Of a DNA stretch of 64,000 bases, positions 32,338-64,000 are shown piece by piece. A program made the position numbers and the translations under genes. Positions within the stretch are counted from its first letter, which is position 1. Every line of letters starts with the position of its first letter. Source of the stretch: an uncultured Planctomycetia bacterium (lineage in GTDB: Bacteria; Planctomycetota; MHYJ01; WSZJ01; CAZWCX01); contig CAZWCX010000007.1 in assembly GCA_964632945.1 (NCBI GenBank), positions 30,088 to 94,087 on the forward strand, written 5' to 3'. The notes below the pieces were generated by a model. The model did not search any database. It saw only the letters and a program-made list of their open reading frames with translations, and had not been told where the DNA came from.

Positions 32338-32647
32338 CTTCCTATGACCCGATACCGATCGGATGGGCCGGAACCGCTGTCGAATCCTACTGTCGGTTCC
32401 GAAGGAGTGTCAAGAGGAAATGTGGCTTCAAACTTTGCCGCCGGGCATTGAAGGATTTGTTCAATCCGGCCTGTAAGCCGGTTGCGAGCGAATCCTGAAA
32501 TGATTGCTACATATAGTGTTACGTCATTGCTGGGAATTCCGTGGGCACGGAATGGCGCTTGCTTATCCCCCTCTTCGGTGCGGCCAACCCCGGCTCGCAG
32601 GGGGTGCACCGGAGGCCCGCACGAAAGGCATCGGGAGGCACGCAACC

Positions 32648-35661: not shown

Positions 35662-35806
35662 CGGGGGGCGGACCGGACCGATAGAGTAAAGGGAACGGAC
35701 GGCCTGGCCCGGGCCGAGGAGCGTGGACCGGAGCGGGCGGGCCACCCCTGGACCCGGCGGAGGCGGTGCGCAGGGTGTTCGCACCCTCGGCGCGCGCGTT
35801 CCTCTC

Positions 35807-40694: not shown

Positions 40695-40913
40695 TCCCTT
40701 TCCGTAGTCTCTGCCCGCCTCTCATGTCAAGCCTTCGACCCTCGCGTCGCCCGCTTGGGCCATTCGCCTTGCCGGGCACGGTTCCCTCCCGAGCCGGACT
40801 CCGTGGTTGCATCGCCGGGTGGGCATGGCGCCCTCGCTTGCTTGCGCGCCCGTGGGTCCCTCGGCATACTGGGAGATGCCGTTCCTCATCAGGCCGGGAG
40901 GTCGCCGCCCCTC

Positions 40914-47029: not shown

Positions 47030-48103
47030 ATGCTCTCCTCTCTCGATCCCCGACCGATCCAGGACCCGTACCGCGCCGCCGTCTACCGAGGGGTGTTTCA
47101 CGCCGCGGGGCTCTACAACCTCGCCTTCGGGGCATGGGCGGGACTCGATCCCTCGGCCTTCTTCCACTGGATGGAGATCGACCCGCCCCGGTATCCGGCC
47201 ATCTGGCAATGCCTGGGCATGGTGGTCGGGCTCTATGGGCTGGCCTACTCCTGGGCGGCCGAGCGGCTGGAGCTCGGCCGCCCGCTCATCGCGATCGGTC
47301 TCCTGGGCAAGGTGCTGGGGCCGTTCGGATTGATCTTCACCGTGCAGTCGGGGGAATGGCCGCTTCGCACCGGGATGCTCTGCGTCTTCAACGACCTGGT
47401 CTGGTGGGTTCCCTTCGGCCTGTACCTGCTCGAAGGGACGCGGGCGGGTGCGGCGGTGCGGGCGGGGGCGGTCTGGCCGTGCGTCGCGCTGCACGCGATC
47501 GCGGCCCCGGCCACGCTGTTCCTGCTTCAGGGGGGCAGCGAGGTCGTTCCGGACGCCGCACAGCGGATCGCGTACATCCGCGACCATGCCGTCGCCTGGC
47601 GCGCGGGTTGGGCGCTCTGGATGTTGAGCGCGGTCAGCCTGCTCGGATTCTACGCCTGGTGGGGGGCGCGGACCGGCAGGCCGCGGGCGGCGCACGTCGC
47701 GCTGGCGATCGCCGCCGTCGGTATGGGGTTCGACCTCTTCACGGAAGCCCTCTACATCGGGTGGTTGCCGCGCCACTTCGAAACGATTGCGCCGATGGGC
47801 ACCCTCCTCTCCGCGGGCGTGGCCAACGGACTCTACAGCGTGGCGGGGGTGATCCTGACCCGCAGCCACGCCGGATTGCCGCGCGCGTTGCGGGCGATCG
47901 CGTGGGCGGTCTGGGTGGGAGGATTCGGCCTCACGGCCAGCGCGCTGGCCGGCTGGGTGCCGGGATTGGTGGGGTTCTCCGCGGTGATCATGACCCTCTT
48001 CACGCCATGGTGCGCGGCCGTGGGCTGGGTGTTCCGGGAGGGGCGACGACCGGTCGCGGAGCCGGAACCCGTGCCGGGAATCGCGCCGGAGTCGAGCCCG
48101 TGA
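47030..48103 (+). CDS. Hypothetical polytopic membrane protein. It may instead start at the TTG at 46991.
   Basis: Eight to ten hydrophobic helices with no catalytic motif. Its stop overlaps the next gene's GTG as GTGA. Confidence 0.55.
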   Translation: MLSSLDPRPIQDPYRAAVYRGVFHAAGLYNLAFGAWAGLDPSAFFHWMEIDPPRYPAIWQCLGMVVGLYGLAYSWAAERLELGRPLIAIGLLGKVLGPFGLIFTVQSGEWPLRTGMLCVFNDLVWWVPFGLYLLEGTRAGAAVRAGAVWPCVALHAIAAPATLFLLQGGSEVVPDAAQRIAYIRDHAVAWRAGWALWMLSAVSLLGFYAWWGARTGRPRAAHVALAIAAVGMGFDLFTEALYIGWLPRHFETIAPMGTLLSAGVANGLYSVAGVILTRSHAGLPRALRAIAWAVWVGGFGLTASALAGWVPGLVGFSAVIMTLFTPWCAAVGWVFREGRRPVAEPEPVPGIAPESSP

Positions 48104-49188
48104 GGCGTGTGGTGGTTCTCGGCGCGCGCGGTTTCTTCGGCGGCGCGGTGGCCGAACTGTTGCGCGCCGGGGGGGCGGCGCCGCTCCGCGCCGCGCGGAC
48201 GGGCGGCGATATGCGCTGCGATGCCGAGGACCGGGAGTCGCTGCGCGCCGCGCTTCGATCCGGCGACGTAGTCGTCGATGCGGCCGGACCGTTCCAGGAG
48301 CGCACGACGGCCCTGGTGGAAGCCGCACTGGAGATCGGATTCGACGTCATCGACCTTTGCGACGCCCTCGGTCACGTGCGCCGGGTGCGGGGCCTCGAGG
48401 AGCGGATCCGCACCCGCGGCATCCGGGTCCTGTCGGCCTGCAGCACCGTGTCGACGGTCTCGGCCCTTGCGGTGCGGCGGAGCGGGGCGCGCGCGCCGGT
48501 GCGGCTCACCGGTTTTCTCGCGCCGGCGACGCGTCACTCGGCCCGCCGCGGCACGGCGGCGTCGCTGGTCGGGTCGCTCGGGAAGCCGGTCGAGGTCCGG
48601 CGGAACGGCACTCCGGCCCCCGCGACCGGCTGGGGCGAAGAACGGGCGTGGGACATGCCGCCTCCGGTGGGACCCGTGAACGGCGGACTTTTCGAGAGCG
48701 CCGATGTCGACACGCTGCCGCGCGTCTGGCCGACGCTCCGCGACGTCGCCCTGTATGCGGATTCCCGCGTCTTCGGCATGAACGCGGTGCTGCGACTCGC
48801 CGCACGATGGCCGTCGATCTTCCGTCCGTTCCTGCGGCCGAACCGGCTTGCGCTTTCCCTGGCGCGTCTCTGCGGCGCCGGCGCCGGCGGGATCGGATAC
48901 GAAGTGGAAGACGGCGACGGCACCCTTCTCGGCGTGGCCTGGGTCGGCCGGGATCGGTCGCATCTCGTCGCCGCGGCGCCGGCCGCGCTGGCGGCACGCG
49001 CGCTCGCCGAGGACCGCATCCCCGGGGGCGGCATCGTTCCCCCCGACCGCCACGTCGAGGTCGCGGCGCTTCGGGACCTGCTCCGCGACCTCGGCGTGGA
49101 GGAATTGCACGCGCGGATCGACCGTCGGGGCGGGCCGCCGGGGTGGATCGCCGCCGAGCCGTCCGATCCGTGCCCGTCCTCGCGCTGA
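48100..49188 (+). CDS. Saccharopine-dehydrogenase-like NAD(P)-binding protein. A GTG start overlaps the upstream stop.
   Basis: Rossmann motif VVVLGARGFFGGAVAELL at the N-terminus. Only the C-terminal third of track ORF 46036..49188 is the real gene. Confidence 0.6.
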   Translation: MRRVVVLGARGFFGGAVAELLRAGGAAPLRAARTGGDMRCDAEDRESLRAALRSGDVVVDAAGPFQERTTALVEAALEIGFDVIDLCDALGHVRRVRGLEERIRTRGIRVLSACSTVSTVSALAVRRSGARAPVRLTGFLAPATRHSARRGTAASLVGSLGKPVEVRRNGTPAPATGWGEERAWDMPPPVGPVNGGLFESADVDTLPRVWPTLRDVALYADSRVFGMNAVLRLAARWPSIFRPFLRPNRLALSLARLCGAGAGGIGYEVEDGDGTLLGVAWVGRDRSHLVAAAPAALAARALAEDRIPGGGIVPPDRHVEVAALRDLLRDLGVEELHARIDRRGGPPGWIAAEPSDPCPSSR

Positions 49189-49223: not shown

Positions 49224-50402
49224 TCACTCCCCGTCCATGCTCTGCAACAGCCGGACGTGAATCCGCGCGTACTCCTCCTGCTCCCGTACGTCCAGCAGCG
49301 TACTCCCGGAGGCGGGTTCCAGCAGCGCCGAGAAGGCCGCATCGCGGACCTCGGCCGACTCCTGTTCATCCAAGGCAATCCGCCGCAGGAGGGCGACGGC
49401 GTTCGAGTCGCGGGGGGTCAGGTGCCCGTCGAGCCCCTGAATGACCGCGCGCCGGAAGGCGGTATCCCGGCTCCGGTCCACTTCGCGCAGCAACGGCTCC
49501 AGGCGGTGCGGCGTGGGGTTCGAGTCGAAGGCCATCGCCAGCATTTCCCCGCGGCGCGCGGGGTCGGATTCCTGCTGGGCGGCGATTTCGAGGACTTCCG
49601 AAAACTGCGGACCGTCGCCGGGGATGTACGAGATCGCAACTTGCCGGACTTCCGGGTCGCGATCGCGAAGAAGGCGATCCCAGGCCTCGATCCGTTCCGC
49701 CTCGGGCAGGGTCGTGAGGTGCTCCGCGCCGAAGATCCGATGTCGGGAGTCGGACCGGGCCAGGGCTTCGCGCACATACGCCCCGGCGCGGTCTGCGGCG
49801 GCCAGTTCGAGCCACTCGAACAGTCCGTCGCGCAATCGCGGGTCCTGCGGATCGTCGCGCAAGCGCCGCTCCAGAATGCCGGCCATGGCGTCCGGAGCGA
49901 TCTCGATCAGCCGGCAGATCGACGCAACCAGGGCATTCCAGGCGGCGTGCATGGCCGCAGAGTCACCGGCGCGGGCCACTTTGTCCCACTCGAGCAGCAG
50001 TCGCGTGAACGAGCCCTCGGCGTCCCGATCATCGACGGAAAACGCCTTCTCGATCCGCTCGGTATGCGCGTCGGTGGATCCGGAGCCCGGCGGGAGGCCG
50101 CGCCGATCCGCGGGATCAGGCGCCGGCCGGTCCGGCCCCGCCGCGTGGGGGGCGGGCCCCGCGGGCAGGGGCGCCGCCGGCGCAGGCCTTTCCTCCAGAC
50201 CCCGCGGCGCCGTGGGATCGGTGGTGCGCTTGCGGGCGGCGTCCCGCCGGCGGGCTTCGTCGCGGAGACGTTGCGCGTCGGCGACCGCCCGGTCCCGCGC
50301 CGTTTCCGCATCGTGTCGCGCCCGGCGTTCGAGCCCCCACGCGCCCGCGACGAGGGCGGTGTAAGCGGCGATCCCCAAGACGAGCCACCGGTTCCGTCGC
50401 AT
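49224..50402 (-). CDS. N-terminally membrane-anchored HEAT-repeat protein.
   Basis: Transmembrane helix WLVLGIAAYTALVAGAW, followed by HEAT-like repeats (DPEVRQVAISYI, SAEVRDAAFSAL). The ATG was verified at 50402. Confidence 0.65.
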   Translation of the reverse strand: MRRNRWLVLGIAAYTALVAGAWGLERRARHDAETARDRAVADAQRLRDEARRRDAARKRTTDPTAPRGLEERPAPAAPLPAGPAPHAAGPDRPAPDPADRRGLPPGSGSTDAHTERIEKAFSVDDRDAEGSFTRLLLEWDKVARAGDSAAMHAAWNALVASICRLIEIAPDAMAGILERRLRDDPQDPRLRDGLFEWLELAAADRAGAYVREALARSDSRHRIFGAEHLTTLPEAERIEAWDRLLRDRDPEVRQVAISYIPGDGPQFSEVLEIAAQQESDPARRGEMLAMAFDSNPTPHRLEPLLREVDRSRDTAFRRAVIQGLDGHLTPRDSNAVALLRRIALDEQESAEVRDAAFSALLEPASGSTLLDVREQEEYARIHVRLLQSMDGE

Positions 50403-50528
50403 CGAGGGTTCCCCCCGGGCAGAAGCGCACCGATGCCAACATAGGACGGCACGGGGCAAGTTTCAAGCCGATTCCCGCGCACACGACCCGGCGCGGGCGG
50501 GTTGCGAGGGAACGAGCGGACGGTAGGG

Positions 50529-51386
50529 TCAGGGAATGCGTGTCGACTCGAGGAGATCCCGGACTTCCGCCAGCGGGCAGCGTTGACCCGAACACATCGC
50601 GTCGGCCGCCTTCGGCCGGACCGCCTGGAACTCCTCCGGGGTCGTGCCACGAAGTTCCCCGTTCGGCAGCCGTTTCAGGAGCGCGAGCGATGCGGCGCTG
50701 TTCCCCGAGGGGTTGCCCAGGAGGAGGTAGGCCCCCTCGACCGTCCGGAGGATTCGTTCGACTCCGAACCAATCTTCGAGTCGGGTCTCCCGTTCCGTCA
50801 GGATGCCGAGCCGGAGCATGGCGCCCCCGTCGCGACCCGACTGCAAGTCGCGCAGCAGCAGGGTTCGCCCTGCCGCCAGGTTGGTCGCCTGGATGCGGAT
50901 GGCGCAGGCGATGCGCTCGAACCAGCAGTCCGGCGTCGAACCCCAGGCGGGGATGTCCCCGAAGAGGTCGCGCAGGTCGGCTGCGAAGGAAGGGAGCCAG
51001 TCCCGATCCGGACACGTGGATCGCAGCAGCAGTCCGGGATCCGGGTCCGCGAGCAGTTCACGTACTGCATCCGGCGGGATCGCCTGGATTCGGCGTCGAT
51101 CGACGAGGTGGACGAGGTGGTGCCTCGGTGGGGGCTCGTCCTCGGGGTCCCAGAACCGGGTGGTGACGAGGTCGAGGAAGGATCCCACGGGCCGACGAAG
51201 GACCCAGTCGATTCGGTAGTCGCGGAACCCGGGAAGATCGGTGCCGCGGAGGGTGATCACGAACCAGCCGTCCCGCTTCCATGGTCCGGCGAACTCCCGC
51301 ACACCCGGGGGAAAGTCGATCGGGTCCAAACCGGGGGCGAACTGCCGGCGAATCCGTTCCCAGTTCCGGCGGTCGGCGTCGTTCAT
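50529..51386 (-). CDS. Cytoplasmic hypothetical protein of 285 aa.
   Basis: No signal peptide and a non-repetitive, balanced composition (WFVITLRGTDLPGFRDYRIDWVL...). The ATG was verified at 51386. It lies downstream of, and on the same strand as, the giant-protein genes. Confidence 0.55.
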   Translation of the reverse strand: MNDADRRNWERIRRQFAPGLDPIDFPPGVREFAGPWKRDGWFVITLRGTDLPGFRDYRIDWVLRRPVGSFLDLVTTRFWDPEDEPPPRHHLVHLVDRRRIQAIPPDAVRELLADPDPGLLLRSTCPDRDWLPSFAADLRDLFGDIPAWGSTPDCWFERIACAIRIQATNLAAGRTLLLRDLQSGRDGGAMLRLGILTERETRLEDWFGVERILRTVEGAYLLLGNPSGNSAASLALLKRLPNGELRGTTPEEFQAVRPKAADAMCSGQRCPLAEVRDLLESTRIP

Positions 51387-51490
51387 GGCCGGTTCCTTCT
51401 GCGGTTGCCCTGCAGGGAACGCGCGGGCGCCGCGTCCGCCTTCCGCCGGCACCCGGGAGGCCGGCGGGGGAGGCGGACGGTGGGATCCGA

Positions 51491-54400
51491 CTAGGTTCCG
51501 GGAGTTCCCTGCGGGCCCGGCGGCGTCGCGCCTTCCGCCGGCGGCGTGGGTGCGGCGGCCGGCGGGTGTCCCGCGCCCCAGTTCGGGGAAGCGGCGGTCG
51601 TTCCGGGCATCGGCGCCTCCGGGCCCCCCTCCGGGGCACTTCCGTCGCCGGCCCCGCCGCCCCACCAGGAGCGTACTCCCTGGAGCGCGCCGTACAGGAC
51701 CGCGAGCATGAAGCACGCGCCCGCCGTGAAGACCAGCACCGACAGGTACTCCCGGTACGTTTCCTCCAGCAGCGTGTGCGCGCCGAGGAGCACGAGCGTG
51801 CCCGCGCCAAGCCAGCCGATTCGGGCGAGGTCGGTGACGCCGGGCACGCGCCAGAGGGCCCACACGACCAGGAGCAGGAGCAGGGCCATCGTGCCGCGCG
51901 CGACGTAGCCGACGCTGGTGCGCACGCAGCGGGACCGGATCCGTCCGGGTTCATCGAGCGAAATCAGGGTCTGGAAGTGGAACGACTTCCCGGACTTCGG
52001 TCGCGCGCCGCTCGACATGGAGGGGAGGCCGGCGGCCTTGCCCTGCTGGACCTCCATCGCCCCGCCGCCCATGCGGGCTTCGGACATGCGGCGAATGACT
52101 TCCACGTTGCGCTGGTACTGGACGTCTCCCTGGCCGGCGGGTGCGTTCGCGCCCGTCGACTGCGGGGCCATGGCGATCGGCGCATCGGGGTCGGCCGCCG
52201 TGAGCTCGTTCTCGGTGAAGTAGGAGACGCGGCGCATGTTCCCCGAGTCGGCCACCAGTTCGTAATTCACCGGCAGGGAGACCGACCAACCGAGCCGCAG
52301 GACCGGCAGGTTCATCGGCGGCGCGGCGAGGTCGATGACGTCGACCACGCCCATCGGCTTCTGTTTCCGGCCGAATCGAAGGCGGACGTCGAACGTCTCG
52401 TCGCCGCGGGCCGCCTTGGCGATCGGCACCAGGGTGATCGTCTTGCCCGACTCCTGCGTCTGGAACGGGGTCTCCTGCGCACCGGCCACGAAGAGGTGCC
52501 AGATGTCGGCATCCGCGGGAAGTTCGAGCCGCAGGTACTGTTCCCGGGTGTTGCGAACCCGGGCGGCCAGGTCGGTGATCATGTGGCCTTCCTCGGTGAT
52601 GGTCGTCGACAGCCGCAGGGCCTCGACCACCGCGACGAGGACCTTGGCGAACTCGTTCTGGCGGATGTTGGCCGAGAAAGAGTACGGGTGCCGGAGGTAG
52701 CGGAACGCCATCAGGATCGGCACCGAGATGCCGCGCTTGTAGTCGGCGGGGACTTCCTTGTCGTCGATCGGCGTGAGCGCCTCGATCGCGGGCGCCGACA
52801 TCTCCACGTCCGGCCGCGCCGCAAATGCGAGGTAGCCGGTTTCGCGCTCGAGATCGTAGGCCTCCCCGACCGGCTGGACCTGGGGGCCGGTGAAGGTCAC
52901 GGCGCCGCTGCGGTCCTTCACGTCCCGCTGGAAGGTCAGGTAGAGGGTGTACGCGCCGGTCTGGGGCGAGTGGAGGGTTACCGTCCACACGTCCCCCTCC
53001 CCGGGGCGCGCGCCCTTGGTCTTTTCCTTGTGCTTGATCGCCTGCCCGTCGATGTCCGGGTCGTTGACGCCCGGCGGGAGCTTGATCTTGAACTGGCTCA
53101 CGCCGGCGTACAGGATCGAGAAGCGCAGGGTCGTGGAGCAGGTCACCAGCTGCTCGGCGATGGAGACGAAGCTGAAGGTCTCGGCGGTCACGCGCGGCTT
53201 GACCTTCTCCACCGACAGCCCCAGCGACCACGGGGATTCGAAGTACTTGTAGGCGATCGCGAACGACGCCGCCCGTCCGGCGAGGCCGGCGGGGAGGTCC
53301 TTGAGGTCGATCTCGGTCAGTTTCTGCGTCCCCTTGGCGTCGGTCTTGACGCGCAGGTCGGCGGCGGTGGTGAGGGCCAGGTGGCCGCGCTCCTTTTTCA
53401 CGTCGCGGACGGCGAAGGCGGGCAGGCCGATCCCCTTGGTCACCTCGGTCAGCGGCGTCTCCGCCTTGATCGAGAGGACGTAGGCGCCTTCGACCTTGGA
53501 CTTGAGGGTCACGGTGAGAACGCCGTCGGTCTCATCGCGCTTCCAGTCGTCGAGGTTCTCGCCCTCCACCGACAGGATGCGCAATTCGGGGGCGAGCCAC
53601 GCCTTGAGGGAGAAGACGCCCGCCTTGCGGATGTCGTACGCGAGTTCGGCGGAGAGTTCGAGGTTCTTGTCGGTGATGGAGTACACTCCGCGGGTCTCGA
53701 CCGTCACCTCCGGCATGACGTCGGTGACGCCGACCGCGAGCTTGTAGGGGTGTTTCAGGTAGCGGAAGGCCAGCTCGACCGGCTCCCGGTCCGGAGCGGG
53801 CTGCCCGCCCTTGCCGCCGTTCCCGGCCGCCGCGGGCTCATCGAAGAGCGTCCACGCCAGTTCGCGGACGTTGATCTGTCGAATCCCGTCGAAGGCACGG
53901 GCCTCCGCCTTCACGCCCGGGACCGTGGTGAGGGCGACGTAGCCCCACTCGCGCTCGACGTCGAGCACCTCGATGGCGGGCAGGGAGACGTCCGCGGCGT
54001 CCTTCACCGCGCGTTCGGTTTCCAGCGTGAGGCGGTAGTCGCCTTCCGCCTTGGAGCGGAGGTCCACCGCCAGAACGTTGTCCTTCACCTGCTGCGTATT
54101 GATGTCCCGGCCGCCGAGGTCGAGCAGTTTGAGGCCGTCGGGGAGGCGAATGAGGAAGCGGAACACGCCGGCGTCGCGGATCTTGTAATTCACCGCGGTG
54201 GACAGGCGCAGGGTGTCTTTGGAGAGCCGCGCGACCGTGAAGACATCCGCCGTCACCTTGGGCGTCACCTCGCTGACGGAGAGCGAGGCGTCGAAGGGCC
54301 GCTTGAGGTACTTGAAGCCCAGCTGCATCTCGTCGCCGGACTTCAGGTCGCCGGGCAGTTCCTGCACGTCGACCTGGGCGACGTCCTTGGCCGAGGCGAC

Positions 54401-55354
54401 CTCGACCTTGATCCCCTTCTTTGCGGCGATGGCGATCGCCCCCTTCTCGCGCTCGACGCCGAGCACGGCCACCCGCGGGGCGGCGACGGTGACGGGGATG
54501 CCCTCGAGGTTGCGCTCGAACTGGAGCTGGAGGGTGTAGGCCTTTTCGACCTCGCGGAGGAGTGCGATCTTCAGCACGCGGCCGTTGGCCTCGTCCGTGA
54601 CGTTCCAGGAGCGCACGTGTTCGCCGACGACATTCATGAGATTCAGGCCTTCGCCGATCTCGAACCGGATTTCGCCGAGGGCGCCCTGCACAACGTGGAA
54701 GTCGAACGTGCTGTCCAGGCGCAGGACGCCGCGCGCGAACGTGAGGAGGGCGCGTTGTTCCGCGAAGACCACGTTGCCGACCTTCTGGTCGAGTTCCCGC
54801 GACTGCCAGGTCACGGTGACTTGGGAGGAGGGGCCGCCGTAGACGACCACTTCGGTCTTGCCGTCCTTCTCGGAGGTGCCGAAGTTGCCGGTCGGGTCGG
54901 TGGTGACCTTGAGATTGGTCTCGGGGATGGTGAATTGCACCAGGGAACGCACGGCGGGGGCGAACGGGAGGGTGATCGACTTGCCCGCCTTGTCGTCCTT
55001 CACGCGCGTCACGAAGCCGAGATCGATTCCGTACGTCCCGGGCTTCCCGAGCAGGAGGTCGAGGCCGTGGGCGCCCCGGCGCAGATGGACGAAATCGTCG
55101 TCGCCCATGCGCACGCGGAAATCGGTGAGCGAGATCTCACCCGGGAGAAGACGCAGGGCGTGCCAGCCGGGCTGGACGCACCGCACGGTGGCTCTCATCG
55201 AGAAGGTGCCGAGGCCGCCGGAGATGGAGCCTTCGGCGGTCATCTCCTTGACGAGCACCTGCACTTCAGGCGCGGGGGTCGCCGGCTCCTGCGCCGGGGC
55301 GAGGGCGGCGCAGAGGAACAGCGCGGCGAGCGCGAGGGAAAGCGGCTTGCACAT
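51491..55354 (-). CDS. Giant secreted repeat protein of about 1288 aa with a signal peptide and C-terminal transmembrane anchor. It is a paralogue of the next gene.
   Basis: Signal peptide MCKPLSLALAALFLCAALAPAQEP; the ATG was verified at 55354. At least four ~130-aa modules recur (F[RK]YL[KR]xP[YFW]...V.P[KR]VT.ET...Y.IR.AGVF.[FL].[IL].LP.G). C-terminal helices are present (MALLLLLVVWALWRV, LSVLVFTAGACFMLAVLYGAL). Confidence 0.8.
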   Translation of the reverse strand: MCKPLSLALAALFLCAALAPAQEPATPAPEVQVLVKEMTAEGSISGGLGTFSMRATVRCVQPGWHALRLLPGEISLTDFRVRMGDDDFVHLRRGAHGLDLLLGKPGTYGIDLGFVTRVKDDKAGKSITLPFAPAVRSLVQFTIPETNLKVTTDPTGNFGTSEKDGKTEVVVYGGPSSQVTVTWQSRELDQKVGNVVFAEQRALLTFARGVLRLDSTFDFHVVQGALGEIRFEIGEGLNLMNVVGEHVRSWNVTDEANGRVLKIALLREVEKAYTLQLQFERNLEGIPVTVAAPRVAVLGVEREKGAIAIAAKKGIKVEVASAKDVAQVDVQELPGDLKSGDEMQLGFKYLKRPFDASLSVSEVTPKVTADVFTVARLSKDTLRLSTAVNYKIRDAGVFRFLIRLPDGLKLLDLGGRDINTQQVKDNVLAVDLRSKAEGDYRLTLETERAVKDAADVSLPAIEVLDVEREWGYVALTTVPGVKAEARAFDGIRQINVRELAWTLFDEPAAAGNGGKGGQPAPDREPVELAFRYLKHPYKLAVGVTDVMPEVTVETRGVYSITDKNLELSAELAYDIRKAGVFSLKAWLAPELRILSVEGENLDDWKRDETDGVLTVTLKSKVEGAYVLSIKAETPLTEVTKGIGLPAFAVRDVKKERGHLALTTAADLRVKTDAKGTQKLTEIDLKDLPAGLAGRAASFAIAYKYFESPWSLGLSVEKVKPRVTAETFSFVSIAEQLVTCSTTLRFSILYAGVSQFKIKLPPGVNDPDIDGQAIKHKEKTKGARPGEGDVWTVTLHSPQTGAYTLYLTFQRDVKDRSGAVTFTGPQVQPVGEAYDLERETGYLAFAARPDVEMSAPAIEALTPIDDKEVPADYKRGISVPILMAFRYLRHPYSFSANIRQNEFAKVLVAVVEALRLSTTITEEGHMITDLAARVRNTREQYLRLELPADADIWHLFVAGAQETPFQTQESGKTITLVPIAKAARGDETFDVRLRFGRKQKPMGVVDVIDLAAPPMNLPVLRLGWSVSLPVNYELVADSGNMRRVSYFTENELTAADPDAPIAMAPQSTGANAPAGQGDVQYQRNVEVIRRMSEARMGGGAMEVQQGKAAGLPSMSSGARPKSGKSFHFQTLISLDEPGRIRSRCVRTSVGYVARGTMALLLLLVVWALWRVPGVTDLARIGWLGAGTLVLLGAHTLLEETYREYLSVLVFTAGACFMLAVLYGALQGVRSWWGGGAGDGSAPEGGPEAPMPGTTAASPNWGAGHPPAAAPTPPAEGATPPGPQGTPGT

Positions 55355-55497
55355 GGGGGCCTCCAGCAGGTTCGGAAGGAGCCGGGGGGCGGACCGGGGC
55401 GCGGGGACGATCCCGCGCCGGCCGCGAGCGGGCTCCGGAAGTACAGGGACACGAGCGGGCGGCCGTCCGGGCGCGCCCGCGGGGGGCGGAATTCGGA

Positions 55498-58400
55498 TCA
55501 TCTGGGGAACACCTTGGCGGCGATGGCCTTGGCGGACAGAAGGAGGAGCGAGGCGCCCGAAGACCAGGCCGCCACGGACAGATACGGCGCGAGCGGGGCA
55601 TCGGCCCCGGACGACGCGAAGGCGACGGCGGCAAGGGCCACGCCCGCGACCAGGGCGCCGGCGCGCGGCCAGGCCCAGCCCAGGGCGATCAGGCCGACGC
55701 CGAGCAGCCCCACGGTGCCGAGCTGGATGGCCAGGCTCGTTCCCGCCGCGACACACCAGACGTCCAGGCGCGCGTCGCCGCCCGCCAGGGACATCTCCTG
55801 GAACTGAACTTTGCGCGTGCCCGCGACCGGGAAGGAAACCGCGATCGGGAGCGCCGCTTCGCACAGGCCCCGTTCGACGCGACGGAACGGGATCGCGTCC
55901 GCCGCCTGCAGGGTCGACTGGGCGTGGAGGAGTCCGAGGTTGGTCGCCGGCGGGGTCTTCACGTCCGGCGTCGGTGGCGACTCGGGGTCGGAGGGCAGCG
56001 GGGACTCGGTCCGGCTGGCCAGTTCGGACGCGCGCCCCGGCTGCTTGGAGGGACGCGGCGACGGGGTGTTCGCGGACTTTCCGCCGGCGAACCGGCCCTC
56101 ATCGGTGGACGGGGGCTGCATCCCTCCCGCGGAGGTTTCCCCCGCCGGGGCGGCCCCGCCCTTGGCGGCGGCCTGCTTCTCCATCTCCAGGTCCGGGTCC
56201 GCGGCGGGGGCGGGTGCAGACTTCTTCCCCTTCAGCGCGCGCTCGAGCTTGTCGCCCGCCTGGGCGAGTTGGCCGTCGTCATACCGGTCCGCTTCGCGAG
56301 GCCGTCTTTCCTCGGCCTTCCGTTCCAGGTCCTTGAGGCGGGCATCGGCGATGTTGCCGCGCACGTTCTGATAGTCCCGCCCGGCCTCGGCGAACTCTTC
56401 CTGGTCCGCGGTCTCGTTGTGGTCCATCGGCTCGTCGGCTATCTGTTGCGGCTTGTCGGCGGCGGCGCGGTCGCCCTTGCGCTGTTGGCGGTAGTTGCCG
56501 ATCGTCGCTTCTTCGCTCGCGGAGCGGCCGTCATCGGCGAGTTCCTTCTCCCGGTTTTTCTGGTCCGCCCCGCGGAGATTGCGCCGGTGCTCCCGCTGGG
56601 CCGGCCCCGAGGCGGGTTCCGGCGCGGCCGCCCCGGGCGCGGCATAGCCCGACGAGGCCGCGATGTCCTGCTCCCCCATGTCGCGCAGCGTGAATTCGGT
56701 GTTGATCCGGTCCGCAGCGCGCGACTGGCTGGGCGCCCCTTCATCGAGAGACATCGACGCCGCCTTGAAGAGGCGGGCGGATCGCTTTCCGACGGTGACG
56801 ACCAGGCCGGCGGCGACCGCCACGACGAGGGCGGCGATGGCGCCGAAGCGGATCAGGGGATGGATTTCGTACGCGCGCAGCGCGTCGCGCAGCCAGAGGA
56901 GGAAGGCGCATGCGCCGGCGAGGGTCCCCACGGCCAGGCCGATGCCCAGGATCCAGGCCAGGGCGGTGATCAGCCAGGGGGGCACCGCTTCCTTCAGGAT
57001 GCGGCCCATGCGCTCGAACAGGCGCGGCGCCTCCATCCCCGGTTCCACCGCCGCGAGCCGGAGCGAACCCTCCGCGTCGAGCATGTGGTAGCCGCCGGGC
57101 AGATAGACGGCCCAGCGCACGGCCTCCATCTTGATGTCGGATTCGGGGGCGCGGAAGGACGGTCGGGCGGCGAGCCCGAGTGCGCCGACCTTCTGCGTCC
57201 AGACCACGCTCACGTCGCACTGGATCCGGCCCGCGGTCGCGCGCGGGAGCGGGAAGCGGATCTTGCCGCCTTCTCCCAGGCTCGGCTTGACCGGTTCGCC
57301 GTCCACATATCCGCCCCACACGGTGGCGGTGTCGGGGAAGGCGAGTTCGAGATACTGCTTGTCGGTGTTGGTGAGCCGGGCGTTGAGGTAGGTCAAGGCG
57401 TCGCCGTCGGGCTGCACGATCGTGTGCAGGTCGCACATGCCCATCTGGGCGGCCTCGACCTGGCCGCGCTGGTGGGTGGTGACGCGGAAGACCGCTTGCG
57501 CGGGCGTGCGGGCGAACCGCAGCATGTGGGTATAGGCCAGGGAAGCGTCCCGGAACTCCTCGGGCAATTCCTGGCGGTCGAGGGCGGTCGTGCCCTGTCC
57601 GCGGACGAGTTCCACTTCCGCGCCCGACTGATCGCGGGCGACGAGGAGGACGCCTTCCATGCGCTCGACCCCGGCGATCTCCGGCGGGGAGACGCGGACC
57701 TGGGGGTCGTCGTCGGGGACGGCCATTTCGTACCCCATGGTGATGCGGACCGCGCCCTTGCGGCTGCCGGCAAAGGTCAGTTCCCAGGCGCCGTCCTCGA
57801 AGCGTCGGCCCTGGAGATCCTCCGCGTCGACGCGCGAATTGAGGGCCCCGGTCGGGAGGGTCACGCGCAACCGGCGGATGCCGGCGCGTTCCACCTCGAG
57901 GTCGGCGACGCAAAGGGCGGTGACGAGGCCGCGGCGGATCTCGGCCACGGTCGTGGAGCGCGCCTGGATGCGCGGCGTCAGCGGCTTCGCCGCCACGCGC
58001 ACGGACCAGGTCGCCCCCGCGCACCGATACGCCAGGACGGGGTTCGTCGCGCGCAGCTCGCCGGGGAGTTGCCCGATCGGAATCTCGCCGACCTGATCCG
58101 TTCCCGCGGCGGTCACTTCGATTTCACCGGCGGCGGCGAAGGCCGCCCAGCCGCGCTGCTCTTTTGCGCCGGCCCAGACCAGGCCGCCCAGCGGGGACGC
58201 CGCCTTGGTCGTGTCCACCCGCGACTCGGTCTCCACCGCCAGCGCGAGGGCCCCCGTGCGACCCGCCTTCAGGTCGATGCGCAGGGTCCGATCCGCGTCG
58301 CGGAACGTCCAGTCGCGCACGTGCGCGCCGGACACCTTCACCGGCTCTTGGCCGGGCGGAAGGGTCAAGTCGACGGCGAAAACGGGCGCGCGGGAAACGT

Positions 58401-60120
58401 CCGCGGCGATCCGGTGCAGGCCGGAGATCCGATCCGACTCCACGCGGTAGAGGGTGAAGACCTCGACGCGCGTCTCCGGCGCGAGCGGGGAGACCGCCAC
58501 CTTGATCTCCCCCTTGCGTTCGCGCAGCCGGTACGCGAGTCGCGAGCCGACCTGCTGGAGCCACGCGGGGAGTTCCTTGGGGTTGACCTGCGCGGCCCCG
58601 GCGGTCGCGGCGGTCTCGACCGCGGTTTCGCCCCGGGAGGCCACGCCGATCACGTCGGTGGACTCGACCGTGTCGAGCAGGTCGAGCCGGGGCAGGACCA
58701 CTTCGCCGCGCCCGGGCAGGGCGGCGGCGGCTTCCACCTGCAGCGCGACCGTGCCGAGCGTGCGGCGGAGCAGATTCACTTCCAGGAGGTCGCCGGAGGC
58801 GCGCCAGTCCCGTACGGCCTTGCCGGTGACGGTGAGGATCTCGAGATCCGCGGGACGGCGGAAACGCAACGCGGACGCGCCGATCTCGTCGATGGTGATC
58901 GCCGCGACCGTGCGCAGGACGAGGGTGTCCTTCTCGATCATCACGCTGCTCTCGGACGACACCCGCAGGCGCGGCGTCTTGCGTTCGACCCCCAGCGTCA
59001 CCGCGGCGGGGAGACGGGCGTACCGCCATCCCGCGCGCACGGTCTGGGCGAGGCCTTCGAACTGGGATTGGACGGCGGCGGTCTCGATCCGTTCGGCCGC
59101 GCGGGTCCCCTCCTCGCGGGTCGCCAGTTCGGCGTCCGCGGCCAGGGCGATCGTGCCGGCCTGCTCGCGCGCCCCCTCGACCGCGGGCGGTTCGAGGACG
59201 AACGTCCCCGGCAACCCGTCGATGGGGGCGTCGTGGCGCACCCGCAGCACGGTTTCGCGCGTGATGCGGGGCACGAACCGGACGTGGAGGAGGCGGTCCT
59301 GGTCGCGGTTCTCGACGTACCAGCGGGCGACCGCGTCCCCCTCGACCGCGAGCACGGCGGCCTGCGAGGCGAGGCGGAAGGCGATCTGGTCCAGCCCGCC
59401 GCGTTCGACCACGATCCGGTACCGGCCGAGTGCCTCGACGACGCCGGCGCCGACCTGGAAGAGGGTGCGGTCCTCGACGCGATAGGTGGCCCCCGCGTCG
59501 GCCTGGCCGTCGCGCGGGCGCCATTCGAGATTCAGGGAGGAGCCGGGCGCCGGCGCCACGCGCACGCGATTGCGCGCCTCGCCCAGGATCTCCTGCGGGG
59601 CGTCGGGCGACGCCAGGAAGACCAGGTCGCGGCCGTCCGCTTCGAACTCGACCACGGCGGCGGCGGCCGGAATCAGCGGAATCTCGACCGTCGCCCGGCG
59701 CTCCGAGCGGGCCACCGGCGCAGTCAGCCGCACGTCGATGCGCACGTCGCCGTCGCCCTGGAGGAGGAACTTCACCGTCGACCCGGAGTCGAGCATGCGG
59801 ACCGCGCCGGCGGGTTCGCAGGTCCAGGAGTCGATTCGATATTCGCCCGCAGGAAAGGGGACTTCACCCCAGGAGTCGCCCATTCGCCGGGCGTCGATCC
59901 GCAACGTGAAGACGGCCTCCTCCCCGACTACGCGGCCCTCGTAGGAGGCGCGCAGGACCGAAGCGCCCGATGGCGGTGCGAAGGGCGCCTGCGCAACCGC
60001 CGGGACGGCCGCCGATAGCAGCGCCGACAGCAGGAGCAGGAGCCCCGCGGCACGGGAAGCGGCGCTGCGGGCGCGGTGCGACCCGGGAGGGGTGCGGTGC
60101 GTGTGTTGTTCGGGGCTCAT
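55498..60120 (-). CDS. Giant secreted repeat protein of about 1540 aa with a signal peptide, a central transmembrane pair, a ~250-aa charged disordered segment and a C-terminal multi-helix membrane domain. The start coordinate is uncertain by +/-1 nt because the printed sequence and the track numbering disagree here.
   Basis: Signal peptide AAGLLLLLSALLSAAVPAVAQAP. It carries the same repeat family as 51491..55354 (LAYRLRERKGEIKVAVSPLAPETRVEV..., LAYRCAGATWSVRVAAKPLTPRIQ...). Transmembrane segments include ITALAWILGIGLAVGTLAGACAFLLWL, and the C-terminal ~110 aa are hydrophobic. Confidence 0.8.
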   Translation of the reverse strand: MSPEQHTHRTPPGSHRARSAASRAAGLLLLLSALLSAAVPAVAQAPFAPPSGASVLRASYEGRVVGEEAVFTLRIDARRMGDSWGEVPFPAGEYRIDSWTCEPAGAVRMLDSGSTVKFLLQGDGDVRIDVRLTAPVARSERRATVEIPLIPAAAAVVEFEADGRDLVFLASPDAPQEILGEARNRVRVAPAPGSSLNLEWRPRDGQADAGATYRVEDRTLFQVGAGVVEALGRYRIVVERGGLDQIAFRLASQAAVLAVEGDAVARWYVENRDQDRLLHVRFVPRITRETVLRVRHDAPIDGLPGTFVLEPPAVEGAREQAGTIALAADAELATREEGTRAAERIETAAVQSQFEGLAQTVRAGWRYARLPAAVTLGVERKTPRLRVSSESSVMIEKDTLVLRTVAAITIDEIGASALRFRRPADLEILTVTGKAVRDWRASGDLLEVNLLRRTLGTVALQVEAAAALPGRGEVVLPRLDLLDTVESTDVIGVASRGETAVETAATAGAAQVNPKELPAWLQQVGSRLAYRLRERKGEIKVAVSPLAPETRVEVFTLYRVESDRISGLHRIAADVSRAPVFAVDLTLPPGQEPVKVSGAHVRDWTFRDADRTLRIDLKAGRTGALALAVETESRVDTTKAASPLGGLVWAGAKEQRGWAAFAAAGEIEVTAAGTDQVGEIPIGQLPGELRATNPVLAYRCAGATWSVRVAAKPLTPRIQARSTTVAEIRRGLVTALCVADLEVERAGIRRLRVTLPTGALNSRVDAEDLQGRRFEDGAWELTFAGSRKGAVRITMGYEMAVPDDDPQVRVSPPEIAGVERMEGVLLVARDQSGAEVELVRGQGTTALDRQELPEEFRDASLAYTHMLRFARTPAQAVFRVTTHQRGQVEAAQMGMCDLHTIVQPDGDALTYLNARLTNTDKQYLELAFPDTATVWGGYVDGEPVKPSLGEGGKIRFPLPRATAGRIQCDVSVVWTQKVGALGLAARPSFRAPESDIKMEAVRWAVYLPGGYHMLDAEGSLRLAAVEPGMEAPRLFERMGRILKEAVPPWLITALAWILGIGLAVGTLAGACAFLLWLRDALRAYEIHPLIRFGAIAALVVAVAAGLVVTVGKRSARLFKAASMSLDEGAPSQSRAADRINTEFTLRDMGEQDIAASSGYAAPGAAAPEPASGPAQREHRRNLRGADQKNREKELADDGRSASEEATIGNYRQQRKGDRAAADKPQQIADEPMDHNETADQEEFAEAGRDYQNVRGNIADARLKDLERKAEERRPREADRYDDGQLAQAGDKLERALKGKKSAPAPAADPDLEMEKQAAAKGGAAPAGETSAGGMQPPSTDEGRFAGGKSANTPSPRPSKQPGRASELASRTESPLPSDPESPPTPDVKTPPATNLGLLHAQSTLQAADAIPFRRVERGLCEAALPIAVSFPVAGTRKVQFQEMSLAGGDARLDVWCVAAGTSLAIQLGTVGLLGVGLIALGWAWPRAGALVAGVALAAVAFASSGADAPLAPYLSVAAWSSGASLLLLSAKAIAAKVFPR

Positions 60121-60130
60121 GGCGCGATCC

Positions 60131-62440
60131 TCACTTCTTCTCGGCATCCGGGGCGTTCCGCGGTCGGGACACGCGCACGACCAGGAGCAGGGATTTCTGT
60201 TCCGGTTCGAGTCCGTGGGTCAGGGAGAAGGCGAGCGCGCCGTCCTCGGCGATCCGCGCGCCGCCCTGCACGGGAGCCAGGGCCAGCGAAGGAAGGCCCG
60301 GGGATGCCGCGCCGTCGGGTCCGACGGCGGAGCCGAGTACGGCGGCCCACTCGCCGTCCGCGTCGACGCGGAACCCGTCGCCGTCGCGGCGTGCGCGCAC
60401 GCGCAGGGCGAGTCCGGTGGCGGCGCGTACGGCGGCGGCGGCATCATCCGCGAGGTAGGCGGCGTCTTCCCGCTCCGCGCCGCCGCCGAAGCGGCCGACG
60501 GGGGAGGTCCCGGTGAGGCCGAGCCGACGCTCGACGCCGCGACGCCGGTCGGCGGCGTCGAGGAGTTCCCGCGCGGCCGCGGGGGAAAGCGCCAGGCCGG
60601 AAGCGGGAAAAGCGGCCCCGCGCTCGCTCGCGCGCAACGCGTCCACTTCGATCACGTCCGCCTCGACCGCGACGAATTCAGAACCCTCCCGGGCGATCTC
60701 CGCCAGGGCGGCGGCGAGGCCGGGGCGGGCGCCGCGCCACAGTACGCGGCCACCCGGGACGGAGAGCGCACCGGCGGCATGCGCGCGCAGCCACGCGGGG
60801 GCGGCATGTCCCGGGGCGCGCGTCGCGGCGGACACGGGCCGGAACGGGTTTTCCGGTTCGGCACGGGCCGCGGCCCGCGGCACCGCCACGCCCAGGGAGT
60901 CGAACGGCGCGACCTCGTCGAGGGAGGGGATCCGGGCCACGCTCCAGCGGTCGGCGGCCGGGGCCCCGCCCAGGCAGAGGATGCCGTCCCGAATCCAGGC
61001 CTCGATGCCGAGGCGCGCGCACGCGGCGCGCACCACGGCGGCGGCGGAGGCCCCGGCCGGCCAGTCGCCCGCGGCCGTCGATCCCGCCGGCGCCGGTCCG
61101 TGCACCACGCCCAGGCCCGCGCGCCGGGCGGCTTCGCCCGCCGTCTCGAGCGCCGGTCCCGCCGGCCACGCGTCGTTGGTCCCGGTCCCCGCGAGTCGAG
61201 GATCCTCGTCCACGGATCGGCGCGCGCCGCCCGCCGGCGCATGGGCCGCGACGATGCGCACGATCAGCGCGAGCACACGGTCGCCCTCGTCGCTGCCGAA
61301 TTCCCGGCCGAGCCGCCACGCGAACGCCCCGCCGGGGGCCACGCCCACGGCTCCCGCCGCGATCCGCTCCGCCGCGCGCGGCAATTCGATCGGCCCCAGG
61401 GGCGTCTGCGCCCACGAGGACGATTCGGCCCGGCGCAACTCGCACCGAACGCCCACCGCCACGCGTCCGCCTCCGTCCAACCCGCCCGGCCGCAACGTGA
61501 TGCGGATCCGACTGATCTCCCGGCCGCTCTGCGGAACCTTTTCCACGGACGACCCGGGTCGTTCCAGCCGCCACCCGGCCACGTAGGGGTGTTGCGTTTC
61601 CGTCTCGAAGCGCGCGTCGGTCCCTTCCAGGGCCGCGGCGGCGAATTCCCGCAGCACACGGCTCTTGTTGCGCGCCTCGTGCAGCAACGCCTCGAACTCC
61701 TCCGCCCGGAGCGCGCGCGTCCCGGCCGGCGCCAGCGCCCGCCAACCCTCGAGCGGCACCTCGATCAGCGCCGCGCGGAACTCCACCGTGTGCCCGATCG
61801 CTCCCCGCAGCGCCCCGAGGAAGGAGCGGACTTGCGCGTGCACCGCGCGCGTGTGCGTCACCCAGAGCATTTCCCCATCGGCCCCCAGCGCCGCCTCCGG
61901 GCCGCCCCATCCGGCCCCGGGTTCAGCATCCCGGACCAGCGCGACGAGAGCCCGGAGCGCCTCCGCGGATCGATCTTCCCCCGTCCCGGGGACGGTCGCT
62001 TCCAGCGCGGGAAGCAGATCCCCGACCGGGTACGCGCGCGTCACCGTTTCGGTCCCCGCCCGCGCGCGCGGGACGATGTCGATTCGGCTCCCGTCCGAAA
62101 ACCACGTCAGGCTGCTCCCATCGAGGAGCGCATCCAGCACCGTCCCGGCGGGCGCGTCTTTCACCTTTGCGGTGAACCGGTCGCCGGCGGCGGCCAGCGC
62201 TTCGGCACAGGCGGCATCCATCGCCAGGGTCACGCCCGACTGCGCCTGCATCGCCTGCAGGATCCCGGCCAGGGGCGCCTGGGTGAAGTCGAGGGTGACC
62301 CGCGCCCGCCCCAGGGTTTCTTCCGCCGGATCCGCCTGGAGCGGGTGGGAAAGAGAGAGGAAGACGAGGAGGCTTCCCCACAGGACGGCCCCGGTGGCGC
62401 GCGAATGCATGGCTGCGCGGCGGTTCGAGACGGATTTCAT
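60131..62440 (-). CDS. Secreted 769-aa protein with an N-terminal secretin-N/STN-like domain.
   Basis: Signal peptide LWGSLLVFLSLSHPLQA. The STN-like block is VTLDFTQAPLAGILQAMQAQSGVTLAMD...GTVLDALLDGSSLTWFSDGSRIDIVP. A GGAGG ribosome-binding site sits 6 nt upstream of the ATG at 62440. It is followed 10 nt later by the next giant gene. Confidence 0.7.
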   Translation of the reverse strand: MKSVSNRRAAMHSRATGAVLWGSLLVFLSLSHPLQADPAEETLGRARVTLDFTQAPLAGILQAMQAQSGVTLAMDAACAEALAAAGDRFTAKVKDAPAGTVLDALLDGSSLTWFSDGSRIDIVPRARAGTETVTRAYPVGDLLPALEATVPGTGEDRSAEALRALVALVRDAEPGAGWGGPEAALGADGEMLWVTHTRAVHAQVRSFLGALRGAIGHTVEFRAALIEVPLEGWRALAPAGTRALRAEEFEALLHEARNKSRVLREFAAAALEGTDARFETETQHPYVAGWRLERPGSSVEKVPQSGREISRIRITLRPGGLDGGGRVAVGVRCELRRAESSSWAQTPLGPIELPRAAERIAAGAVGVAPGGAFAWRLGREFGSDEGDRVLALIVRIVAAHAPAGGARRSVDEDPRLAGTGTNDAWPAGPALETAGEAARRAGLGVVHGPAPAGSTAAGDWPAGASAAAVVRAACARLGIEAWIRDGILCLGGAPAADRWSVARIPSLDEVAPFDSLGVAVPRAAARAEPENPFRPVSAATRAPGHAAPAWLRAHAAGALSVPGGRVLWRGARPGLAAALAEIAREGSEFVAVEADVIEVDALRASERGAAFPASGLALSPAAARELLDAADRRRGVERRLGLTGTSPVGRFGGGAEREDAAYLADDAAAAVRAATGLALRVRARRDGDGFRVDADGEWAAVLGSAVGPDGAASPGLPSLALAPVQGGARIAEDGALAFSLTHGLEPEQKSLLLVVRVSRPRNAPDAEKK

Positions 62441-62823
62441 GCCCCCTCCGGATCAGTCGACATGGAAACGACGGTCGGCCTCTCCCGGCCGGCCCGCTTG
62501 GAGAGACGGTCGCACCCCGGGGGGGAGCGACGAAGCAGGAATGACGGATTGGACGCCAGGAATACCGTCCCAGTTTCCAACTATTCCGCATTCCGGTCAA
62601 GAGAGCAATGCAGGGCCCGAGGTCTTGGGCGATCGGTGCGCCGGCGGGGGCGGTCCCGGGTGGATCGTCCGGATCCCGCAACCCCTATGGAGATAAAGGG
62701 ATGCACAGGCCGGGGGGCCTCGGCCTCCGGCCGCTCCGGCACCGGCTTCGCGGTCGGGCCGAGCGCGCCGCTCGCCGACGGGCACGCGTGGCCGCACCCG
62801 ATTCGGTCGGATCCTCGACGCCC

Positions 62824-63642
62824 TCAGGCCGTCTTCGCCGGCGACCCCCGCCGCCGCTCGACCTCCGGGGGCGGCGCCTGCCCGTTCCCCCCACCCTTGC
62901 TCTCGAGGAACGCCCGGAAGAGATCCACCGGCACCGGGAAGACGATGGTGCTGTTGTTCTCCGCTCCCACCTGGACGAGCGCCTGCAGGAATCGCATCTG
63001 CATCGACATCGGATGCTTCTCCATCATCGCCGCCGCCTCGGTCAGCCGGGCCGCGGCCTGGAATTCGCCGTCGGCGTGGATGACCTTGGCGCGCCGCTCG
63101 CGCTCGCTTTGCGCCTGCATCGCCATGGCCCGCTTCATGTGTTGAGGCAGGTCCACGTGCTTCACCTCGACGAGGGATACCTTCACCCCCCACGGATCGG
63201 ACTGCACGTCGAGCGTCTCCTGCAGGCGACGATTGATGCGCTCGCGATCCGACAGCAGTTCGTCGAGTTCCGCCTGCCCCACGATGCTGCGGAGCGTCGT
63301 CTGGGACAGTTGGCTGGTGGCGTAGCCGTAGTTCTCCACCTCGAGCACGGCCTTCATCGGATCGAGCACCCGGAAGTAGACGACCGCATTGACCTGGACC
63401 GACACGTTGTCGCGCGTGATCACGTCCTGCGCCGGCACGTCGTGAACGAACGTGCGCAGGCTCACGCGCATCATCCAGTCGATCGGCCAGAAGATGAAGA
63501 CCAGGCCGGGCCCCTTCGGCACCGGCAGGACCCGGCCGAGCCGAAAGACCACGCCCCGCTCGTACTCCGAGAGGATGCGCAGGCAGGTCAGGATGTAGAA
63601 GGCGACGATTCCCAGCGTGATCCCGATGGCTTGCAGGATCAT
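62824..63642 (-). CDS. SPFH/band-7 (stomatin-like) protein.
   Basis: An N-terminal transmembrane helix followed by the SPFH core ([13 protein letters not shown]...[19 protein letters not shown]). Its start overlaps the NfeD stop as ATGA. Confidence 0.9.
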
Positions 63643-64000
63643 GGCGTTTCCTCCTTTTCCCCGCCGAGGGGCGGGGACGCTACGGTCAGGGTGAGCCCCT
63701 TGCGATCGCGCACGACCACCCGCTGGCGGGCGGCGAGCGGGGTCGGCGACACCGCCCGCCAGTACTCCCCGTGCACGAACACGGTCCCGACAAACCCGCC
63801 GGCGGCGGCGGTGAAGTCTTCCAGGACTTCCGCTGCTTCCCCCACCATCCCTTCCGTCCCCGTGCGGACCTGCGCGCGGTGGGCGCGGACGATGTTGCCG
63901 ACCAGGAAGGCGGCGATGAGCCCGGTCGCGACCGCCACCGGGACGACGACGCCGGCGGAGACGCGCAGGAACCCGGTCGGCGAATCCACGAGCATGAGAC
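63639..64000 (-). CDS. NfeD-family protein, partner of the SPFH protein. The N-terminus probably extends beyond the window end.
   Basis: A C-terminal OB-fold-like block ([13 protein letters not shown]...[14 protein letters not shown]...[14 protein letters not shown]), typical of NfeD. The reading frame is still open at 64000. Confidence 0.7.

Follow-up and report, generated by a model that had tools for sequence, protein, structure and literature searches.

Two giant tandem repeat proteins of an uncultured planctomycete belong to a large, unnamed family of predicted periplasmic proteins

Near the end of a 64,000-nucleotide (nt) stretch of DNA from an uncultured Planctomycetia bacterium (contig CAZWCX010000007.1, positions 30,088 to 94,087; hereafter the window), two very large genes lie in tandem on the minus strand and encode proteins that carry no domain name, here called giants B and C. 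An earlier note on this DNA proposed that B and C form a multi-component envelope assembly together with a secreted protein encoded upstream (A), two proteins encoded downstream (D and E), and an SPFH/NfeD pair. This raises the question of which of these genes belong together and what kind of structure the giants provide. With moderate confidence, we interpret the B+C pair as a conserved functional unit, namely a non-enzymatic, two-module periplasmic scaffold or binding platform that is anchored in the inner membrane and belongs to an undescribed family of the Planctomycetes–Verrucomicrobia–Chlamydiae (PVC) bacteria.

Giant B (1540 aa) is encoded at 55498-60120 and giant C (1287 aa) at 51491-55354, 143 nt apart; both gene models are identical to independent gene calls. 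BLASTP aligns the two proteins with 23% identity over 1026 aa (E 4e-74), which identifies them, at the level of sequence, as true tandem paralogues, as the earlier note had it. Internal repeats were not detected by BLASTP self-comparison of B and C, and profile searches were needed to find them. Single-unit profiles from the C family recover the remaining units in both proteins with independent E-values of 1e-6 to 1e-40. The units lie at residues 190-323, 340-483, 520-680, and 696-853 of C, followed by a partial unit at 858-950, and at ~237-337, 358-505, 523-672, and 693-830 of B; each giant holds four full copies and one partial copy. The recurring module described before is thus real, and its motif is found at residues 348, 531, 703, and 885 of C. 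Described there as ~130 aa long, the module in fact recurs every ~175-180 aa and has a core of ~130-150 aa that is conserved. Both proteins also share a separate C-terminal ecto domain (C 861-1045, B 846-1021).

In both giants, hydropathy analysis supports the predicted signal sequence at the N-terminus and a block of hydrophobic helices at the C-terminus. B comprises a signal peptide (~1-43), an ectodomain (~45-1040), a transmembrane (TM) hairpin (1047-1115), a charged low-complexity linker, and a brief strand motif that is conserved; the TM helices of the C-terminus follow, placed by hydropathy at 1460-1508, with a third discerned by eye at ~1513-1535. The linker corresponds to the charged segment noted previously between the membrane regions; it covers ~280 residues after the hairpin and is rich in D/E/K/R/P/A. 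Because the hairpin would return the chain to the outside, the linker is probably periplasmic, like the shorter linker of C. In C, a signal peptide (1-21) and an N-terminal domain (22-~170) precede the repeat units, and the C-terminal ecto domain is followed by a linker of ~100 aa, a conserved 'FxFQTLISLD' motif, TM helices within 1146-1225 (two by hydropathy scan, a third by eye), and a Pro-rich tail. Both proteins are therefore predicted to be anchored in the cytoplasmic membrane with their ectodomains in the periplasm. No cytoplasmic signaling domain is found in the giants, nor is a CxEQ thioester motif or an HExxH motif, and the 11 C-type orthologues compared have no invariant His or Cys in common. 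B and C share the features by which we delimit the family: a minimum of four repeats of ~175 aa, the C-terminal ecto domain, a conserved motif preceding the membrane segments, and the C-terminal TM block.

For C residues 22-1060, AlphaFold2 produced a model from a 29-sequence alignment; its mean predicted local distance difference test (pLDDT) score is 85, and it is all beta, with two ~23-residue strands in each repeat. In this model, the ectodomain appears as about six consecutive beta-sandwich domains of the type seen in ribophorin I and in the N-terminal domain of M1 aminopeptidases. The likeness to the luminal domains of ribophorin I/Ost1, a scaffold of the oligosaccharyltransferase (OST), is one of fold, at 7-9% identity; the giants have no match to Pfam Ribophorin_I, and Ost1 is a eukaryotic protein of the endoplasmic reticulum with two domains, whereas the giants have about six and no OST-like genes nearby. 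The N-terminal beta domain of M1 aminopeptidases (LTA4H, ERAP1, APN, and tricorn factor F3; Peptidase_M1_N) shows the same fold as the repeats of the giants, which in contrast to the peptidases lack a catalytic domain and the HExxH motif and have no Pfam match to Peptidase_M1_N. Sequence homology to this domain was rejected: hhalign of the repeat profile against the M1_N domain encoded in the window itself gave a probability of 0.1%. That domain belongs to a fusion of an M1 aminopeptidase with HEAT repeats (Peptidase_M1_N, Peptidase_M1, HEAT_2) at 22828-25506 on the minus strand.

Large ectodomains of several beta-sandwiches with a C-terminal membrane anchor also occur in integrins and paired type-I receptors, in bacterial alpha-2-macroglobulins (A2M), and in BatD, and integrins operate as a pair, to which the proposed pairing of B and C may be likened. 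Foldseek matches the C model to integrin-alpha legs (E ~1e-7) and, weakly over the whole chain, to A2M, CD109, and TEP1 (probability 0.2-0.4) and to ITIH1; TM-scores are 0.1-0.15. The giants have no sequence relationship to any of these proteins, and no beta-propeller, I-domain, thioester, or BatD domain. An A2M/thioester identity was rejected, with no Pfam match to A2M or macroglobulin (MG) domains even at E 0.1 and no CxEQ motif. BatD (PF13584), which the earlier note had named as a known family onto which the repeat might map, was likewise rejected: neither B, C, nor any of 29 isolated repeat units matches it at E up to 0.1-1. None of the partners of BatD-type operons (MoxR ATPase, DUF58, BatA/BatB VWA) is present in the window locus. 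A DUF4139 or MuiA-like identity was dismissed as well, with no Pfam match and an hhalign probability of 0.2-0.3% for the C-family profile against two DUF4139 proteins from a related locus. Their tandem genes at L035:3308-6032 (plus strand) lie 4-7 kb upstream of a fused giant, as do genes for a TPR protein and for a two-component system.

Queried with the protein itself and with profiles of the family and of the repeat, PDB sequences gave no match, and B and C have zero Pfam matches. The repeat thus has a known fold class and, as first proposed, no counterpart among the named families of Pfam, NCBIfam, PADLOC, and PHROGs or among PDB sequences. The scans of the window proteins against NCBIfam, PADLOC, and PHROGs added nothing beyond Pfam, and the negative PADLOC and PHROGs results led us to reject an anti-phage defense role or a phage origin of the locus.

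The family to which B and C belong is large. An exhaustive hidden Markov model (HMM) search with a 29-sequence repeat profile retrieved 5,384 protein clusters at E<=1e-3 and 1,462 at E<=1e-30, counted at 50% identity. Word-index homologue searches had returned just 15 and 35 proteins, and the impression of a very rare family that they gave is shown by the exhaustive search to be an artefact of sensitivity. Most of the top matches are either ~1,250-1,300 aa long with five repeat matches, or 2,100-2,600 aa long with seven or eight. Named members come from metagenome-assembled genomes (MAGs) of Planctomycetota, Verrucomicrobiota, and Lentisphaerota and are all called 'hypothetical protein', with one exception, a JGI entry named 'PulG'. 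The 24 loci from a genome scan belong nearly all to MAGs of Planctomycetota (including Phycisphaerae and Brocadiaceae), Lentisphaeria, and Victivallales. The family is real, taxonomically coherent, and unnamed, and literature searches yielded no description of it.

The genomic arrangement of family members indicates which genes travel together. The seven proteins of the window locus (A to E, SPFH, and NfeD) were compared by tblastn with 35 related loci (designated by L numbers). In 13 distinct loci (L001, L003, L004, L011, L012, L013, L016, L018, L020, L021, L022, L033, and the window), the gene directly upstream of a C-like gene is B-like. Among these, L033 is a sister contig and the closest relative, with a C protein 78% and a B protein 59% identical to those of the window. 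In L006, L007, L034, and L035 the two modules are encoded by a single open reading frame (ORF), giving fused chains of 2,100-2,800 aa, and in L008, L026, L028, L030, and L032 a free module abuts a two-module ORF. At L003:4618-9666 (plus strand), the B-like gene was deposited as three minus-strand genes; tblastn and a stop-free frame give one long plus-strand ORF, and the split calls are probably an annotation error in GC-rich DNA.

A further link between the split and fused forms is provided by an insert of ~120 aa, in which a membrane helix is followed by 'LLPALSxAKxKAxxxxSxSNLKQIG...VLxADGxV'. By its sequence, this segment carries the signature of DUF1559 / H-X9-DG pseudopilin-like proteins, which are expanded in these phyla. 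The corresponding Pfam family, PF07596, is recognized in 2 of 22 relatives, and an HMM of the segment matches 41 of 277 family members. In the stronger, inspected matches the insert sits right after the first ecto module. It is found in fused giants (at least 24 matches at E<1e-29; for example L007:12626-12973 and L034:12665-13018) and, after the ectodomain, in the B-like members of the split pairs in L003, L013 (8436-8792), L021 (6042-6383 and two more copies), and L022. None of the C-like proteins among the 277 carries it. DUF1559 / H-X9-DG proteins bear this domain at the N-terminus, whereas in the relatives of B it is internal. Neither B nor C of the window matches the insert HMM; the charged low-complexity linker of B occupies the equivalent position, and B has lost any detectable pilin-like domain. 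Since the position of the insert is shared, B would correspond to the first module and the inter-module region of the fused proteins, and C to the second module. This correspondence argues, without proving it, that B and C act together, and is the best available evidence that they do.

The pseudopilin-like domain also occurs in the surroundings of one fused giant. At L007:7968-9083 and 9121-9732, both on the minus strand and divergent from the giant, lie the genes for an extracytoplasmic function (ECF) sigma factor and for a putative anti-sigma protein of 371 aa, whose periplasmic part is the same domain as that within the giant (43% identity).

These observations suggest the following arrangement. 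An N-terminal signal peptide would export B and C, and the C-terminal helices would hold both in the cytoplasmic membrane, each placing an ectodomain of ~1,000 residues in the periplasm. Side by side, the two ectodomains may form a two-module, non-enzymatic scaffold or binding platform. The pairing is proposed because the family nearly always supplies two modules, either from adjacent genes or in one fused chain. We assign the unit, its fold, and its topology class with high confidence; heterodimerization, and a structural or binding rather than a catalytic role, are suggested with low confidence.

Several points weigh against this interpretation. Contact between B and C is deduced from the pairing pattern of their genes, and the function of the giants from their architecture only. 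The predicted template modeling (pTM) score of the C model is 0.42, which leaves the arrangement of the domains, and hence a rod or a compact shape, uncertain, and the fold matches are to generic beta-sandwiches at 7-14% identity. In L024 a C-like gene stands alone, and the 10 kb upstream of it hold no B-like gene. In addition, both halves of the fused proteins are nearer to C-type than to B-type proteins by BLAST score, so that for the orthology of B with the N-terminal half only the shared insert speaks; the score pattern is consistent with B being the faster-evolving copy.

Protein A (769 aa; 60131-62440, minus strand) is encoded 10 nt upstream of B, as stated before. It consists of a probable signal peptide, N0/STN-like and N1-like regions (~40-215), and two paralogous modules (215-405 and 588-765). 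The N0/STN-like character proposed for its N-terminus is supported, and the likeness reaches into N1. Taken alone, A gives weak hints of STN, PilQ, and SctC, with Pfam STN at E 0.0027, below the curated cut-off. In L003, however, a secreted STN-like protein of 278 aa is encoded directly downstream of the pair (L003:13939-14775, plus strand; STN 1.7e-4, FecR_C 0.0018) and aligns with A residues 45-113. A two-sequence profile of this protein and A 40-215 matches residues 338-505 (N0+N1) of Neisseria PilQ with E 4.6e-5, and other PilQ proteins with E-values of 3e-4 to 0.04, supporting a resemblance in sequence of the A N-terminus to secretin N0-N1.

Secretins of the PilQ/GspD type have a C-domain, whereas A carries instead the two modules of ~185 aa, which are 28% identical to each other and are encoded at 60146-60679 and 61226-61798 on the minus strand. 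In agreement with the earlier note, A has no match to Pfam Secretin (PF00263), PDB searches for a secretin C-domain were negative, and both C-terminal modules lack a PDB or Pfam match. The modules begin with 'VxxxAxxIEV' and end with 'LxLxVRV', a pattern that may resemble secretin domains at the level of motifs ('VxxEAxxIEV...' and '...LLLVVRVSRP'). A single-sequence AlphaFold2 model of A reached a pLDDT of 37 and was not used. A word-index search with A returned A itself only, and among the 35 related loci a homologue is found solely in L033, directly upstream of B. A is a lineage-restricted neighbor, probably with an accessory function. As a fast-evolving accessory of this lineage, it could dock the complex, through its N0-N1 head, to a partner in the outer membrane or the periplasm.

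The resemblance of A to secretins and the pilin-like insert together point to a different possibility, in which the giants would serve a type II secretion or type IV pilus-like (pseudopilus) system as accessory components. The embedded pilin-like domain would plug the giant into the base of the pseudopilus, and A would be the secretin-like outer partner. This view draws on the recurrence of the insert after module 1 in the fused giants and in the four B-like proteins, on the recognition of PF07596 and the name 'PulG' given to one relative, on the PilQ N0-N1 match of A, and on a T2SSF gene ~9 kb downstream of the pair in L001. We nevertheless consider it unlikely. A pilin-like domain is not detectable in B of the window, nor is a secretin C-domain in A, and the scanned window genes include none for the ATPase, the platform, or a pilin of type II secretion or type IV pilus systems. 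Moreover, an internal helix could not be cut at an N-terminal leader, as prepilins are, and the great expansion of DUF1559 in these phyla means that the fusion may be incidental.

Whether the remaining genes of the locus join the giants in one machine, as originally proposed, depends on their conservation. The minus-strand gene set is as described, and the models of A, D, E, and SPFH also equal independent gene calls. Protein D (285 aa; 50529-51386) follows C after 104 nt and has no TM segment, no Pfam match, and no match to any other family. Protein E (392 aa; 49224-50402) follows D after 123 nt; its N-terminal TM anchor bears out the predicted membrane attachment, whereas its similarity to HEAT repeats is weak (HEAT_2 2.6e-5, below the curated cut-off). 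The cluster ends at a convergent, plus-strand gene of the saccharopine-dehydrogenase-like type (48097-49188). At the other end, the SPFH/NfeD pair was confirmed: a Band 7 protein (62824-63642; Band_7 4e-34) stands beside a 118-aa NfeD protein (63639-63995; NfeD 8e-13), whose gene model has no exact match among the independent gene calls, and the two minus-strand genes are coupled by a 4-nt overlap.

Between SPFH and A lies an intergenic region of 383 nt (62441-62823, upstream of A on the minus strand), which is likely the promoter region for A-B-C(-D-E). It had been described as AT-richer, which does not hold: its GC content is 0.705, against a window mean of 0.698, and its sole AT-richer part is a 60-nt patch at 62561-62620 (GC 0.53), a possible promoter. 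A scan of 62441-62823 gave no promoter or terminator consensus, and no Rfam family or structured RNA was found in the locus, this region included.

In a single envelope-spanning machine of A to E with SPFH/NfeD, A would be the secretin-N-like outer component, the giants the periplasmic arms, D a cytoplasmic partner, E a HEAT adaptor, and SPFH the scaffold. The common strand and the short gaps from A to E fit this model, as do the retention of the A-B-C order in L033, the STN-like protein after the pair in L003, and a long NfeD gene adjoining the fused giant in L034. Against it, the comparison with the 35 related loci yielded no homologue for D, E, SPFH, or NfeD, and for A one in L033 only. Of the gene order whose conservation was in question, the B-C tandem is thus kept in 13 loci while the other genes are not, and the pair has unrelated neighbors elsewhere, including genes for HSP70, arginine deiminase, a methyltransferase, and sensor kinases. 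SPFH/NfeD is, furthermore, a widespread autonomous pair, set apart here by 383 nt; it is an ordinary, self-contained, translationally coupled membrane-scaffold pair whose genes do not accompany the giants in other genomes. The seven-gene machine is accordingly improbable. D is not counted in the unit because it is not conserved beside the pair, and in our interpretation of B+C as the unit, D, E, and SPFH/NfeD would be neighbors only.

Elsewhere in the window, kinase and protease genes at 11329-14538 (minus strand), 32504-34168 (plus), 35690-39250 (plus), and 39354-40721 (minus) show no evident tie to the giant locus. They encode two giant Ser/Thr kinase-TPR proteins, a Ser/Thr kinase without TPR (32504-34168), and an FHA-trypsin-like protease. 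Such a set of Ser/Thr kinase-TPR and FHA-protease genes is typical of planctomycete signaling.

The genes around the giants in the related loci are heterogeneous. Pfam scans of 238 flanking ORFs found mostly housekeeping or signaling genes, with HEAT_2 matching two of them, and all-against-all ORF clustering gave no further informative family shared by at least three loci; what other clusters there are consist of antisense shadows of the giants or of generic matches to ABC ATPases and sensor kinases. The long-form NfeD gene of L034 (NfeD1b_N, NfeD_membrane, NfeD; L034:7729-9132, minus strand) is divergent from the fused giant and is a single case, possibly a coincidence. Individual loci contain a zf-HC2 anti-sigma-VWA-YfbK_C fusion with its own ECF sigma factor (L006:6996-9976), two YfbK-like copies (L024:15776-18764), and a VIT-VWA protein (L034:17322-19703).

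Some of these neighbors raise the possibility of a sensing or protective periplasmic system, either BatD-like and linked to VWA proteins or A2M-like. Its array of beta-sandwiches would serve to capture ligands or proteases, or to pass signals to ECF sigma factors or two-component systems. VWA, YfbK, or VIT-VWA genes adjoin giants in three loci (L006, L024, and L034), ECF sigma genes do so in L006 and L007, and PAS histidine kinase domains are encoded by three neighboring ORFs among the first 13 loci, which make up the first half of the scan; the weak Foldseek matches to A2M, CD109, TEP1, and ITIH1 point in the same direction. We give this possibility little credence, since such neighbors occur in a minority of loci and not at all in the window locus, the Pfam and motif searches for BatD, A2M, MG, and thioester features were negative, and the giants have no cytoplasmic signaling domain. 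That the giants are exported across the outer membrane and act as a cell-surface adhesin or an S-layer-like coat is very unlikely, as the conserved C-terminal block of hydrophobic alpha-helices points to the cytoplasmic membrane and no autotransporter, T9SS-CTD, or PEP-CTERM signal rises above noise.

The proposed assembly of seven genes is thereby narrowed to two genes that travel together. To our knowledge and in the literature searched, the architecture of their products, with its two-module rule, C-terminal polytopic anchor, and frequent internal pilin-like insert, has not been described before. These phyla have many giant 'hypothetical' envelope proteins, and the beta-sandwich is a common fold; here, at least 5,384 clusters, many of 2,000-2,800 residues, share a repeat to which no domain name, structure, or function has been assigned. 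These giants are among the largest genes in many genomes of Planctomycetota, Verrucomicrobiota, and Lentisphaerota, and their products are predicted to reside in the periplasm, a compartment by which these bacteria stand out as unusual. Defined by its repeat, its two-module rule, its C-terminal anchor, and the frequent internal pilin-like insert, the family offers a new domain model to annotators and a concrete candidate for localization and deletion to cell biologists. More speculatively, and with a low probability of being correct, proteins of the B and C type could be structural subunits of an as yet unassigned, PVC-specific envelope structure, for instance pillars spanning the periplasm or a lattice that covers the cytoplasmic membrane on its outer face. 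The embedded pilin-like domain would connect them to pilus-like machinery, and secretin-N-like partners, A among them, would connect them to the outer membrane. If this were true, the family would open a molecular way into two peculiarities of these bacteria, their unusual, enlarged periplasm and their pit-like structures.

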